From: Candidatus Thorarchaeota archaeon
GTDB taxonomy: Archaea; Asgardarchaeota; Thorarchaeia; Thorarchaeales; Thorarchaeaceae
Direction: 5' to 3'
Assembly (NCBI GenBank): GCA_048884785.1
Contig: JBHLQM010000002.1
Location: 33,044-97,043, forward strand
DNA: 64,000 nt
Below, piece by piece: positions 1 through 7,638 of this stretch. The position numbers and the translations under genes were made by a program. Positions within the stretch are counted from its first letter, which is position 1. Each line of letters begins with the position of its first letter. The notes under the pieces were generated by a model, which did no database searches, was not told the origin of the DNA, and worked only from the letters and a program-made list of their open reading frames with translations.

Positions 1-1817
1 GGGTCTTCATCCATTTTCAAACCTATATATCCCATCTCCTCTAATATCTGGTCCATAGCCTCGGCTCCAGAGACCCATGTCACCTTCCATCCGTCCTCAG
101 GTGTGAATATCAGCTCCACATCCGGGAGGTCTCCTAGCAGGTTGTGGTTCATTTCAATAACATCTTGATATGCTCCTGTCAGAGCTATCACAAAGCATGA
201 GCCTTGGACATTCTTTAGAGAACCCACAGGAATCCCAATCCCCATCTCTTGATCTGGCATGGCGATGGGACGGTTATCTGTTGTAAACCATACCTCTCCT
301 ACTGCTTTCCTGTGGAATTGTGAGATCTCTCCATCCGAATCGCAAGTTATGTCCACTAGTCTTACCGTTGTTTGAGGCCGAACATTCAGGTCTCTAATGG
401 GAATAATAGGAAAGTGCTGCTGTACAAGAACATGATCTCCGGCTGCGTTAAATACACTGAAGTTTCCGATAACAATGTAATCCGGATGCCAAATGCTCTC
501 AATCAATCTATCAGACCTGAGGTTTTTGCTGCCCACTCTAGCCAATTGCCGTCGCATCTCAGACCTGAGCTCGCATATCATCTGCTCCCTCTCTCGTAGC
601 TGCTCTAGGGTAGTCGGAGGAGGTCCCCTTTTTGAGAGGAACTCATTCCAGATATCTATTAGTTCGTTAATTGAGGTTACTTCAACCATCTTTGCTGTCC
701 AGAGTCTTTTCTCTGTTTCAAACACATCAGGCAGTTCGTCAATGGATGGAAATACTGATCTGACCTCTAGAGCCTTTACTACCACCAGTGATGACAATGC
801 GGTGATGCCTCTACCTGATTCAATCATGATGTCAGGATACGAGCGTGTTTCTCCAAGCACCTTGTATTCTTCCTGAACACCTTCCAGTAGCGCTCGGGCA
901 TATAGTTCGAATAGATTTGGGGCATGTGAACTAGTATAATCTATGGGAAGTCCACCTCCAAAATCGATTCTGTGGAGATTTCTCAATCCCATGTCTTTCA
1001 ATTCATAGAAAATGCGTGTCATGAATCGTGAGAACCCGAGAAAATCCTCAATTGCTGTTATCTGAGATCCAACATGACCAAGAATTGTAGATACTGATTT
1101 TTCAAAGCCCTTCTCGGTCAATAAGGCTACCACATCGAACAAGTCATGGATACTGAGGCCGAATTTTGAATTACGGCCAGCAGAGTGAGACCAGTGCCCT
1201 CTCACAGTAAGATAGGGCTTTATCCTCAAAACCAGATTCGTTTCTTTTGACTCTAGGATTCTTGTTATCATATTTGCTTCGTGAAGCGATTCAATGGAGA
1301 TAGCAATGTTATATCCCTCTCTCACGAATTGCTCTATTGTCCTCAGGTATTCTGGATCCTTGGCTCCATTGCAGATGATAAGCCGGTGTTTCTCTTCACC
1401 GAGAACCGCTTTGATGAGATATAGCTCAGCCTTTGTACCTGCTTCAAGACCATAATCTTTGTCTGCTTGCAGAACTGGAACCACACAGTCTTTGCGCTGA
1501 TTCACCTTCACAGGATACACAGCTTCAAACTTACCAGCGTAATTCAATTCTTCAGATAGCTTGGCAAAAGCCATTTTCAATTTCCTAATCTGAAATTGGA
1601 TTAGCTGTGGGATACGGAGTGTAAAGGATGATGTATAGGCCGCCTTTTCTCCATTTTCCGAATTTATATAGTTAATTATCTCTTTGAAAGCGATGGTTTT
1701 GTCCAGGATTTTGATAACAAGGTCACCTTCATCGTTGATGTCAAGAAAATGGAGATCTTTTGTTGCCAATCCATAGGCCACTCTCGAATGTTCTAAAGTC
1801 CACTCTTTCGTATCCAT
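1..1817 (-). CDS. speA: Biosynthetic arginine decarboxylase (PLP, fold type III); 3' end runs off the window
   Basis: Not in ORF track; translated by hand from ATG 1817: MDTKEWTLEHSRVAYGL..., with VYPVKVNQ (PLP Lys), GLEAGTKAE, CNGAKD, IDFGGGL, DITCDSDG, GAYQDVIEMNHNLLGD. Confidence 0.9.
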   Translation of the reverse strand, partial: MDTKEWTLEHSRVAYGLATKDLHFLDINDEGDLVIKILDKTIAFKEIINYINSENGEKAAYTSSFTLRIPQLIQFQIRKLKMAFAKLSEELNYAGKFEAVYPVKVNQRKDCVVPVLQADKDYGLEAGTKAELYLIKAVLGEEKHRLIICNGAKDPEYLRTIEQFVREGYNIAISIESLHEANMITRILESKETNLVLRIKPYLTVRGHWSHSAGRNSKFGLSIHDLFDVVALLTEKGFEKSVSTILGHVGSQITAIEDFLGFSRFMTRIFYELKDMGLRNLHRIDFGGGLPIDYTSSHAPNLFELYARALLEGVQEEYKVLGETRSYPDIMIESGRGITALSSLVVVKALEVRSVFPSIDELPDVFETEKRLWTAKMVEVTSINELIDIWNEFLSKRGPPPTTLEQLREREQMICELRSEMRRQLARVGSKNLRSDRLIESIWHPDYIVIGNFSVFNAAGDHVLVQQHFPIIPIRDLNVRPQTTVRLVDITCDSDGEISQFHRKAVGEVWFTTDNRPIAMPDQEMGIGIPVGSLKNVQGSCFVIALTGAYQDVIEMNHNLLGDLPDVELIFTPEDGWKVTWVSGAEAMDQILEEMGYIGLKMDED

Positions 1818-1846
1818 TGAAGACACTTCCTTTGCATTATATGATG

Positions 1847-6172: not shown

Positions 6173-6192
6173 GTTTCAAAACTCACACTCCT

Positions 6193-7638
6193 CTATCGAC
6201 TCAACTCCATTAGTTCCGAGTGCAATTTCCTAATGAACTGGTCTCCATCTTGATATTTTCCGAGCACAAAATAATCCCTCGATAAACTTCCTTCTATTGA
6301 CCCGTCTGCAAGAAGCAATAAAAGGGTCTGCCTTAGAATTGTCCTAGGAACTCCGGTCCTTTTCACCATAGCATCAATCTCGATGTGTTTCTCTCCCTTA
6401 AGCAGTGCTGTTAGAATCTGTGGTATCTCATCAATCTTTTCCTTTGGAGGCATGTCATCCTCGATTCTCTTCCTCTTAACCGTTCGAACAAATGTGTTGC
6501 CATCAAGATGTCCCTCTATCTCATTGGCTTCAATCATGCTTTGAATGCTTCTTCTGAGATTGTATGTCGCAGGACGCGGAAGTGTCCTTCTGAGGATTCT
6601 ATCCAACTCTTTCAATGCGATTCTATCATGTTTAGTGGTAATTGAATCAATGCTCTCTTTGACAAATTCCTGCGTTTTGTATTCTTCAAGAATTTCAAGA
6701 ACTGAACCACAAGCGTCACAACGTTTCGCCTCTGGAAGAGCTGGAGCACCACAATTTCCGCATTTGATCGCCCTTCTATACAGTGTTTTCTTTGTGGACT
6801 CCATTTCTTGGAGTGTAATTCTCTCTGATTTTGTTTCCCTTGTTGATTCGATGATTTCCCAAAAGCTGATTCTATGGTCATCTGTGCTCACAACCAAGTA
6901 GGCCGTATCAGCAATATCATCTGCCATTCCGGTTGCCAGAGCTTTTGGCTTGCCCGTTAACTCAATTTGAGAAATCGCATTACCATCAATGTCCCAAATT
7001 GTAAGAATTCTGGTTTTATCTCCTGTCACAAACATCTTTCTCTTTCCAAATGATAAAACTCCGAGGGCAGTCAATGAATCTCCAAGTTTAAGTCGCTTCA
7101 ACTCATAACCGGCTGAGGACATGATAATCAAATTACCAGACCTGTCAGCCACGACGACTTCCATCTCTGAATCATTTGTTATATCTTCGAGCCACACATC
7201 TGTAATTGTCTTGTCCATGCGTCGGCTGAATAGCGCTACTTTATCATCATTCCAGAGTATCACTCTCTGATTTTGGAGAGCAACAACAACTTCTGCTGAA
7301 TCATCTCCATCAACATCTCTCGCATCGCATGCTAGAACTGTAGATTCTAGTTCAATTTTCCACATAGGTCGCCCATTATGATCGACCACGAGTACGCGTT
7401 TTCCAACTCCTCCTACTAGCGCGTCTTTTCCATTTCCGTCGATATCTCCAACAGCAATGCATCGTACCTTGCTACTCCAATTCCTTGAGGATTTGAGTGA
7501 GCCTGATACATCATATACACGCAGTTTGTCCCCATAATCGAGAGTGAAGACCTGCGAACTTGCTTGGCTTCCCTGACGAATATACAGACTGTAGGCATCT
7601 GCTGAAACTGGTACCTTCGCGACCTCTCTCAGCTTCAA
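6193..7638 (-). CDS. FG-GAP-like beta-propeller + zinc ribbon + tandem PCI/winged-helix-like domains
   Basis: Repeats GDIDGNGKDALV, RDVDGDDSAEVVV, EDITNDSEMEVVV; CGNCG-x9-CDACG; two PCI-like wings (MIEANEIEGHLD, LLADGSIEGSLS). Confidence 0.65.
   Translation of the reverse strand: MKLREVAKVPVSADAYSLYIRQGSQASSQVFTLDYGDKLRVYDVSGSLKSSRNWSSKVRCIAVGDIDGNGKDALVGGVGKRVLVVDHNGRPMWKIELESTVLACDARDVDGDDSAEVVVALQNQRVILWNDDKVALFSRRMDKTITDVWLEDITNDSEMEVVVADRSGNLIIMSSAGYELKRLKLGDSLTALGVLSFGKRKMFVTGDKTRILTIWDIDGNAISQIELTGKPKALATGMADDIADTAYLVVSTDDHRISFWEIIESTRETKSERITLQEMESTKKTLYRRAIKCGNCGAPALPEAKRCDACGSVLEILEEYKTQEFVKESIDSITTKHDRIALKELDRILRRTLPRPATYNLRRSIQSMIEANEIEGHLDGNTFVRTVKRKRIEDDMPPKEKIDEIPQILTALLKGEKHIEIDAMVKRTGVPRTILRQTLLLLLADGSIEGSLSRDYFVLGKYQDGDQFIRKLHSELMELSR

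Follow-up and report, generated by a model that had tools for sequence, protein, structure and literature searches.

We analysed a 64,000-nt window of DNA from Candidatus Thorarchaeota archaeon (assembly GCA_048884785.1, contig JBHLQM010000002.1, positions 33,044-97,043 of the forward strand), the left end of which carries four open reading frames (ORFs) on the minus strand. P0001 encodes a beta-propeller protein, P0002 and P0003 a long and a short transmembrane (TM) receptor, and P0004 is the arginine decarboxylase gene speA. In our preferred reading, to which we assign a probability of about 0.45, the two receptors form a kinase-free, amine-sensing pair specific to Asgard archaea, which signals by recruiting or releasing protein partners. 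While the sensor is of a known kind, the combination of a dCache-HAMP receptor with a non-enzymatic output and the paired-receptor design are new: a literature search on Asgard von Willebrand factor A (vWA), propeller and Cache proteins and on the BBSome returned no description of the module. To our knowledge, nearly all studied prokaryotic TM receptors end in an enzyme (kinase, cyclase or phosphatase) or in a CheA-docking methyl-accepting chemotaxis protein (MCP) module.

Domain architecture of the receptor pair

Both receptors contain a dCache_1 domain (PF02743) between two TM helices, with scores of 71.5 bits in P0002 and 71.7 bits in P0003 that exceed the Pfam cut-off of 45 bits. The long receptor continues into tetratricopeptide repeats (TPR_12 with 61.7 bits, together with other TPR families) and a vWA domain (VWA_2 with 43.8 bits, cut-off 27; VWA with 28.6 bits, cut-off 23.8). 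In the short receptor, a HAMP match (PF00672, cut-off 25 bits) lies at the very end of the protein. The HAMP motifs are visible in both sequences, consisting of an amphipathic segment AS1 with its Pro, a connector and AS2 with (D/E)-E-I-G, and several homologues pass the cut-off (37.5 bits for a Loki protein homologous to P0002, 30.0 and 25.5 bits). Hydropathy analysis gave the same order for both receptors (TM1, dCache outside, TM2, HAMP inside) while neither P0001 nor SpeA showed a TM segment. As TM helices flank each dCache domain, the sensors are predicted to face outward and HAMP, TPR and vWA to be cytoplasmic.

In the Pfam scan, neither receptor had a domain of the kinase, MCP, cyclase or phosphatase type. 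The vWA domain carries a complete metal-ion-dependent adhesion site (MIDAS; D-x-S-G-S, T, T-D-G), which is invariant in 28 orthologues, in other Asgard families and in copies from giant viruses. P0003 shares 30% identity with the sensor half of P0002 and is not a lineage-specific truncation: its HAMP domain is near-identical in 26 orthologues, the C-terminus lies 5-9 residues past AS2 in all 26 Thorarchaeota proteins, and in the short receptors of five other Asgard families and of giant-virus metagenome-assembled genomes (MAGs), too, little sequence follows HAMP. An initial annotation of this DNA had proposed the same domain order for two transmembrane receptors, an output without kinase, MCP or cyclase, an intact MIDAS and a second receptor that stops right after HAMP, and this description was confirmed. 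The most conserved and slowest-evolving regions are both HAMP domains and the vWA domain, the latter being the slowest part of the whole cassette. This pattern fits a switchable signal converter which may drive a binding surface.

A combination of VWA and dCache in one polypeptide, as in P0002, is also found in the animal proteins alpha2delta and CACHD1 (CACHD1 dCache match, E 3e-10). In these proteins, however, VWA comes before Cache and the two lie outside the cell, whereas in P0002 the membrane is predicted to separate the two domains, which are linked by HAMP and TPR.

Ligand pocket, linkage to speA and distribution across Asgard archaea

Among solved sensors, Mlp24/Mlp37 and PctA/B/C, which are receptors for amino acids, come closest by sequence (PDB matches with E 1e-9 to 1e-12). 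In PctA, R126 contacts the carboxylate of the ligand and its amino group is held by a Tyr and an Asp; sensors for amines arose from those for amino acids (PMC10589655). McpU and TlpQ, which have acidic dCache pockets, recognise agmatine and putrescine with nM-μM affinity (PMC6234866). The amino-group side is kept in both Asgard receptors, where the equivalents of W128/Y129, Y144 and D173 appear as W-Y, P-Y-Y-D and (S/G)-(A/G)-D. The position of R126, on the other hand, is occupied by Glu in 27 of 27 Thorarchaeota orthologues of the long receptor, by Asn in P0003 and by Asp, Glu or Gln in other short receptors; a carboxylate Arg of the PctA type, as in the dCache_1AA motif, is thus absent from P0002 and P0003. 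Because the amino-group residues are kept and the carboxylate Arg is swapped, the ligand is probably not an alpha-amino acid but an amine, for example agmatine or a polyamine. Sensor fold and topology are shared with PctA/B/C, Mlp24/Mlp37, McpU and TlpQ, as are the amino-group W-Y, Tyr and Asp. In contrast to these receptors, the Asgard proteins have TPR-vWA or nothing in place of an MCP, kinase, cyclase or phosphatase, the carboxylate Arg is replaced and a long and a short gene form an obligate pair.

A second line of evidence is the linkage to speA. P0004 aligned over nearly the full length with PRK05354 (333.5 bits, cut-off 369) and TIGR01273 (304.5 bits, cut-off 624), passed the cut-off of Orn_Arg_deC_N (92.8 bits, cut-off 23.4) and is predicted to be a divergent biosynthetic arginine decarboxylase SpeA. 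The genome contains a single copy of the gene, and a search for a pyruvoyl arginine decarboxylase, in which the positive controls matched, found none in the genome. SpeA is the only recognisable arginine decarboxylase of this organism.

Our survey covered 301 Asgard genomes, 224 of them from outside the Thorarchaeaceae; families are referred to by their survey labels, f1 being the Thorarchaeaceae and f9 the Loki/Hermod group. Among the 224 genomes, which are related and do not count as independent observations, receptor and speA occurred together in 22, the receptor without speA in 13 (8 of f9 and 2 of f24), speA without the receptor in 9 and neither in 180. The Loki-type family f9 had speA in 0 of 68 genomes. 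In total, speA accompanies the receptor pair in five or more Asgard families, and it adjoins the receptors in 10 of 10 fetched loci of f22, f27, f5 and f14, either co-directionally or, in f22 and f5, divergently. The residue of the long receptor at the R126 position can be set beside this linkage: it is Glu in f1 and f22, Tyr in f27 and Ser in f14, all with linked speA, Arg in f24 and in the giant-virus copies, both without, and Glu in f9, also without. The initial annotation had treated speA as a passenger, but its linkage turned out to be among the strongest signals of the analysis.

In f27, a second gene of the Orn/DAP/Arg-decarboxylase fold (469-499 aa) follows speA (L062:12466-13872 (+), L063:13155-14651 (+)), and in locus L062 a 750-aa TPR protein precedes the long receptor. 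These neighbours hint at more polyamine-pathway genes in the cluster.

The order propeller-long-short-speA was identical in all fetched Thorarchaeota loci (more than 30 loci from at least 13 genera, with identities down to 37-47%), so that the synteny in relatives that the initial annotation had counted on was indeed found. Named relatives were Candidatus Thorarchaeota MAGs only, where the proteins are annotated as 'hypothetical', 'TPR' or 'cache domain' protein. Beyond this family, orthologues of the long receptor occur in seven further Asgard families at 25-44% identity, and across Asgard families as a whole P0002 orthologues with 28-81% identity were recovered. Long and short receptor genes are adjacent in f14, f22, f27, f5, f12, f24 and f9 as well as in f1, and wherever a short receptor was found, it adjoined a long one. 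This co-travel is what would be expected for a two-part receptor, and the two proteins most likely function jointly, in a heterodimer or a mixed oligomer. In the closed Thorarchaeota chromosome of locus L040 (CP070658.1, 190731-205577), both receptor genes are in pieces, with single-frame matches to residues 1-194 and 4-125 only, which may reflect frameshift errors of the assembly rather than decay.

Homologues of the propeller-Zn protein stand beside the TPR-vWA receptor in f1, f22, f24 and f9, with differing order and strand. In f22, speA is divergent from the long-short pair, which is followed by a convergent gene for a propeller protein of 438-478 aa with a probable single winged helix (WH) and a cross-brace Zn finger. 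The order in f24 is long, short, then propeller with Zn ribbon, with no speA. Two arrangements exist in f9: either long and short receptor are followed by a 622-aa propeller protein, or a 578-585-aa TM-TM-HAMP-TPR-vWA protein, in which a loop of ~20 residues joins the two TM helices in place of dCache, stands before a propeller protein of 606-619 aa. All three loci of the latter type (L067:4721-7251 (+), L074:6224-8737 (-), L068:331-2085 (+)) have the propeller gene (~610 aa) after the receptor; in L067 and L074, a seven-TM protein of ~255 aa with no Pfam match precedes the receptor. That the propeller-Zn neighbour is kept despite changes in order and strand argues for a functional link, and as order and strand vary between families, the linkage is unlikely to stem from inherited synteny alone.

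In f27, f14 and f5, the unit is long-short-speA with no propeller nearby. The f12 family has a 'short' paralogue of 585-670 aa in which dCache-HAMP is followed by a Zn ribbon and HEAT repeats (L060:296-2305 (-), L061:9104-10858 (+)); these could represent a second kind of non-enzymatic output, that is, another docking module. From gene order, the core of the system is the long/short pair, with the propeller-Zn protein and speA as two recurrent, separable companions.

In one Thorarchaeota genome (G007), the propeller and both receptor genes were lost together, and speA, the HDAC-family neighbour and a propeller remnant of 43 aa remain (L023, G007:C7:10000-19000, ~5004-5544; 70% identical to P0001 residues 27-69). 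This joint loss indicates that propeller, long and short receptor form one unit. In genome G039, an ORF for a RING-H2-like protein (115 aa, L022:8459-8806 (-)) lies 170 bp upstream of the long receptor, at the place that the propeller gene occupies in Thorarchaeaceae. It was rejected as a propeller substitute, as it has no homology to P0001 and TATA-like stretches separate it from the receptor, and it is probably unrelated.

An IMG/VR scan with a multi-family alignment identified three giant-virus MAG (GVMAG) contigs carrying the pair, one of 116 kb; the viral assignment is that of IMG/VR itself. On these contigs (GC content ~30%), a 500-580-aa dCache protein adjoins an 880-980-aa dCache-TPR-vWA protein with intact MIDAS, and neither speA nor a propeller gene was found. 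A viral scan with P0002 alone gave no match. The presence of the pair on these contigs shows that long and short receptor move as a unit. On the 116-kb contig (L083:29-5378), the genes next to the pair encode a DNA photolyase and a protein that contains major-vault-protein repeats.

The propeller protein and the layout of the locus

In Pfam searches, P0001 matched beta-propeller families and Zn_Ribbon_1 (E 2.5e-4), with scores of 22.2 bits for FG-GAP_3 (cut-off 26.9), 23.8 for BBS2_Mid (cut-off 27) and 17.3 for BBS7 (cut-off 27). The AlphaFold2 (AF2) model, built from 27 orthologues, reached a predicted local distance difference test score (pLDDT) of 83 and shows, in this order, the propeller, a long helix, the Zn ribbon, two winged helices and a final helix. 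The propeller is modelled with 24 strands, which make up six blades compared to seven in the FG-GAP propeller of integrin alpha, and its D-x-D-G-D-x-x-x-E-V-V-V loops are invariant in the orthologue alignment. Foldseek returned NHL, BBS9, BBS1, KICSTOR, IFT-A and WD40 propellers, all at E ~1e-13. Since these values are similar, the fold is generic; by its loops and the sub-threshold FG-GAP_3 and BBS2_Mid matches, which miss the family cut-offs, the propeller would sit in the FG-GAP-like group. The propeller homologue of the Loki locus L074 does pass cut-offs, with 30.9 bits for BBS7 (27) and 29.3 bits for PHTB1_N (PTHB1_N; 28.6). BBS2/BBS7/BBS9 and ITFG2 of KICSTOR contain cytoplasmic FG-GAP-like propellers as well, but compared to these P0001 stays under the cut-offs, is equally close to NHL and WD40 by fold, lacks a GAE/platform or coiled-coil region and has a Zn ribbon and WH tail instead.

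This tail is confined to the Thorarchaeaceae, of whose 76 genomes ~60 have a P0001 orthologue. Modelled alone, it reached a pLDDT of 76; Foldseek with the isolated tail gave no match at E < 1e-3 and an ESM Atlas search no usable match. Comparing the first winged helix (WH1) with VIA-align, the winged helices of PCID2, an eIF3 PCI subunit, APC2/cullin WHB, Stn1 and DDRGK1 superposed with Z 8.7-8.0 and the PCI domains of CSN and Rpn with Z 7.3-7.5, while prokaryotic DNA-binding winged helices gave at most 7.4. The similarity to PCI and cullin WHB winged helices (PCID2, eIF3, CSN, Rpn; APC2/CUL1) extends over ~70 residues (Z 8.7-7.3) with a root-mean-square deviation of 2.2-2.9 Å and includes the 'I-E-G-x-l-D...F-V' end of helix 3 and the hairpin. 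Nevertheless, P0001 lacks the helical-repeat half of those proteins, and the Z range, with prokaryotic DNA-binding winged helices ~1.3 lower, may reflect the common WH arrangement only. Pfam found no PCI domain (PF01399) in P0001 at E <= 0.1, and the model has the Zn ribbon where a helical solenoid would precede WH1. Of the 'propeller-Zn-PCI protein' in the initial annotation, propeller and Zn ribbon therefore stand, whereas the PCI label had to be dropped for the tail as a whole: WH1 is at best a PCI/cullin-like winged helix. The Arg-rich WH1 may bind either DNA or protein.

Further proteins share parts with the propeller protein. Nearly every Thorarchaeaceae genome searched contains one open frame of ~2250 aa for a giant FG-GAP-like protein, the propeller part of which matches P0001 residues 30-240 at 23-29% identity (examples: G006:C45:10341-10925, G012:C7:26647-27207). 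In P0322 (819 aa), TPR replaces the propeller before the 240-residue middle domain of the Loki-type propeller proteins (43% identity over P0245 residues 326-564).

The positions of the genes and domains are given in Table 1. As claimed initially, the four genes are co-oriented and separated by short gaps. These amount to 20, 12 and 20 bp, the first two as previously stated; the previous value of 29 bp for the third applies only if translation of speA begins not at the GTG but at an ATG three codons further on. Each gap contains a purine-rich, GGAG/GAGG-like ribosome-binding stretch. The first 608 of the 671 speA codons lie inside the window, and the gene ends ~190 bp beyond the start of the window. 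In 20 orthologous regions upstream of P0001, the TATA-like box CTTATATG and the GGTG motif recur with the same spacing; these are the only conserved elements and no palindrome was seen there, so that an operator upstream of P0001 was rejected. A convergent M24 peptidase gene downstream of speA and a divergent HDAC-family gene upstream of P0001 bound the unit. Taken together, the tight gaps, these boundaries and the conserved TATA-like box make co-transcription likely.

Table 1. Positions of genes, domains and motifs in the window
Feature	Position	Strand	Basis
P0001, propeller + Zn-ribbon + tandem winged-helix protein, 481 aa, TTG start	6193..7638	-	ORF, Pfam, AF2 model
P0002, long receptor TM-dCache_1-TM-HAMP-TPR-vWA, 944 aa	3338..6172	-	ORF, Pfam, hydropathy
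P0003, short receptor TM-dCache_1-TM-HAMP then stop, 492 aa, GTG start	1847..3325	-	ORF, Pfam
speA (P0004), predicted biosynthetic arginine decarboxylase dependent on pyridoxal 5'-phosphate (PLP), 671 aa in full on the contig	1..1826 (ORF 3-1826)	-	NCBIfam, Pfam
P0001: six-bladed FG-GAP/BBS-like beta-propeller, residues 1-263, with D-x-D-G-D-x-x-x-E-V-V-V loops	6850..7638	-	AF2 model, Foldseek, alignment
P0001: C4 zinc ribbon C293, C296, C307, C310	6694..6771	-	Zn_Ribbon_1; 4/4 Cys invariant in 27 orthologues
P0001: winged helix 1 (322-385), Arg-rich, best-conserved part of the tail	6484..6675	-	models, VIA-align, conservation
P0001: winged helix 2 (399-459), then C-terminal helix	6262..6444	-	secondary structure of the model; weak Foldseek matches to tandem-WH proteins
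Long receptor: extracellular dCache_1; pocket Y-x4-E-x-W-Y, P-Y-Y-D, S-A-D	5018..6067	-	Pfam, alignment to solved sensors
Long receptor: HAMP; AS1 with Pro, AS2 E-E-I-G	4778..4936	-	Pfam 16.1 bits, motifs
Long receptor: cytoplasmic TPR repeats	4088..4777	-	TPR_12, other TPR families, PDB TPR matches
Long receptor: cytoplasmic vWA with complete MIDAS	3341..4087	-	VWA_2, VWA
Long receptor: MIDAS D715-Y-S-G-S719	4016-4030	-	further residues T790, D819
Short receptor: HAMP with long conserved connector and acidic C-terminal tail	1862..2068	-	HAMP 23.7 bits
Archaeal TATA-like box CTTATATG, ~38-45 nt upstream of the P0001 start, then GGTG ribosome-binding motif	7676..7683	-	conserved in orthologues

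The HDAC-family deacetylase gene (7709-8815 (+)) is separated from P0001 by ~70 bp between the starts. It is retained as a neighbour in G009, G011, G020 and G021 and faces speA in G007 after the deletion of the cassette. An assignment as acetylpolyamine amidohydrolase was rejected, since in the PDB the protein is most similar to HDAC6 and to HDAH-type enzymes of bacteria, and it matched none of the NCBIfam models. On the other side, left of the window, the ORF of the M24 peptidase (L009:10755-12212 (+)) overlaps the 3' end of speA (L009:11855-13870 (-)) by ~357 nt, and its Pfam domain stops ~104 residues short of the ORF stop; one of the ends may be over-called or the genes may truly overlap. 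Two adjoining ORFs of 372-375 aa without Pfam matches follow at L009:8414-10656 (-), ~1.4-3.6 kb left of the window.

Competing explanations and a proposed mechanism

Several points weigh against an amine-sensing pair that acts through docked partners. The HAMP scores of P0002 (16.1 bits) and P0003 (23.7 bits) are below the Pfam cut-off. By sequence, the sensors are not near McpU or TlpQ. The dCache_1AM motif, which according to Cerna-Vargas et al. (2023) includes an upstream insertion with an R103/D133 pair and is described from one archaeal phylum only, the Halobacteriota, was compared only at the positions common to the AA motif. The family f9 is an exception to the match between pocket and gene linkage, as the Arg is gone and yet there is no speA, which makes the correlation imperfect, with few independent lineages behind it. 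The basis for receptor pairing and for propeller docking is gene linkage, and that for co-transcription is gene spacing. Finally, the propeller is not universal. There is none near the pair in f14, f5, f27 and on the giant-virus contigs, and a propeller profile run against whole genomes (two of f14 and one of f5, 84-89% complete) gave no match, and in f27 genomes it gave generic repeat matches only. The initial suggestion that the propeller protein is the partner of the receptors gains some support from its position beside them in four families, but it does not extend to the lineages that lack it.

The initial annotation had also likened the pair of FG-GAP propeller and vWA to the integrin head. 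In its strict form, the cytoplasmic FG-GAP-type propeller would pack on the vWA/MIDAS of the long/short heterodimer and the contact itself would be the switch. The genes for the propeller-Zn and TPR-vWA proteins remain neighbours in four Asgard families despite rearrangement, the MIDAS is invariant, the propeller loops have the FG-GAP-like D-x-D-G-D pattern and the Pfam matches to FG-GAP_3, Itfg2 and BBS families range from sub-threshold to just passing. With the integrin alpha/beta head, the system would share a propeller with FG-GAP-like loops and a MIDAS vWA encoded as conserved neighbours as well as trans-membrane signalling by protein contacts. However, propeller and vWA are both cytoplasmic by prediction, the vWA is fused to dCache-HAMP via TPR, the model has six blades instead of seven, FG-GAP_3 stays at 22.2 against 26.9 bits and Foldseek does not tell the propeller from NHL or WD40 proteins. 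In a mirror-tree analysis of 15 related loci with SpeA divergence controlled, the propeller distances correlated with those of the HAMP-TPR part of the long receptor (partial r 0.66) and less with vWA (0.34), a weak hint that ties the propeller most to HAMP-TPR and not to the MIDAS domain. Together with the lineages that have the pair but no propeller at all, this leaves the integrin head as an analogy, and we consider such a packing unlikely. A bolder proposal is quite improbable: a MIDAS-based, enzyme-free machine of Asgard origin, shared with giant viruses or eukaryotic hosts, in which the ligand would alter the metal-dependent binding of a propeller adaptor, much as in integrins or in the BBSome or KICSTOR, and which would be a relative of eukaryotic receptor-adaptor signalling and not a mere analogue.

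Pocket and speA linkage equally agree with an autocrine or quorum-like circuit, in which agmatine made by SpeA, or a polyamine derived from it, would be exported and sensed by the adjacent pair as a population or self signal. Synthase-receptor gene pairs are familiar from quorum sensing and NspS-MbaA mediates polyamine signalling in Vibrio cholerae; the divergent speA in f22 and f5 has a layout typical of synthase/receptor, but also of regulator/target pairs. Agmatine, however, is a housekeeping metabolite of Archaea, required for the agmatidine of tRNA-Ile, and with SpeA as the only recognisable arginine decarboxylase, homeostasis fits better than a dedicated signal. As the operon also contains no exporter, we regard this circuit as rather unlikely. 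Just as doubtful in our estimate is a purely structural role, with the TPR-vWA tail as membrane anchor or assembly platform (for example for SpeA) free of ligand switching and the propeller-WH protein as an independent regulator that shares the operon. The Loki-type homologues, which keep HAMP-TPR-vWA and the propeller neighbour with a ~20-residue loop instead of dCache, would suit such a scaffold, as would the BatB-like vWA-TPR membrane proteins, which are thought to be structural; among vWA domains of solved structure, that of BatB (3ibs), encoded in the Bacteroides aerotolerance operon, is the most similar in sequence, at a marginal E of 0.014. On the other hand, HAMP, a module for signal conversion, belongs to the best-conserved regions in both receptors, both dCache pockets are conserved and specifically remodelled, and propeller and receptor genes were lost together in G007. 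The BatA/BatB proteins share a membrane-anchored vWA with TPR, but their operons differ from the Asgard unit in that MoxR AAA+ and DUF58 genes are present and both dCache and HAMP are missing. A role in conflict, defence or stress, similar to vWA 'ternary' or Bat/MoxR systems, is in our view highly improbable: vWA and TPR are common in such systems and relatives occur on giant-virus MAG contigs, yet PADLOC matched P0002 only with a generic TPR model and neither P0001 nor P0003, the operon has no MoxR AAA+, DUF58, kinase/phosphatase or effector gene, and the locus is stable and syntenic across the whole family instead of patchy.

For the preferred amine-sensing pair, we propose the following sequence of events. 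An amine would bind in the dCache pocket outside the cell, and the signal would pass through a mixed long/short HAMP assembly to the TPR-vWA(MIDAS) platform, which would change its binding. The output would be the recruitment or release of a partner, with no catalysis involved. In Thorarchaeaceae, the main partner recruited or released would be the cytoplasmic propeller-Zn-WH protein, and further downstream gene expression or protein complexes, including those of the agmatine/polyamine pathway and possibly SpeA itself, may be affected. Since the pair shares its operon with the sole recognisable arginine decarboxylase, its physiological role would likely be to match agmatine/polyamine synthesis or use to external amines.

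The linkage to speA provides a concrete ligand hypothesis, namely agmatine or polyamines, and the sensor domains are soluble, expressible units that lend themselves to direct screening. The occurrence of the pair on contigs binned as giant viruses raises the question of gene transfer between Asgard archaea, eukaryotes and their viruses. What sets the system apart is that a widespread dCache-HAMP sensor here appears to feed a pure protein-docking output, in the archaeal lineage closest to eukaryotes. If this is true, the receptor pair would represent a new output class in prokaryotic signal transduction and would allow adaptor-based signalling in the style of eukaryotes to be tested in Asgard archaea.

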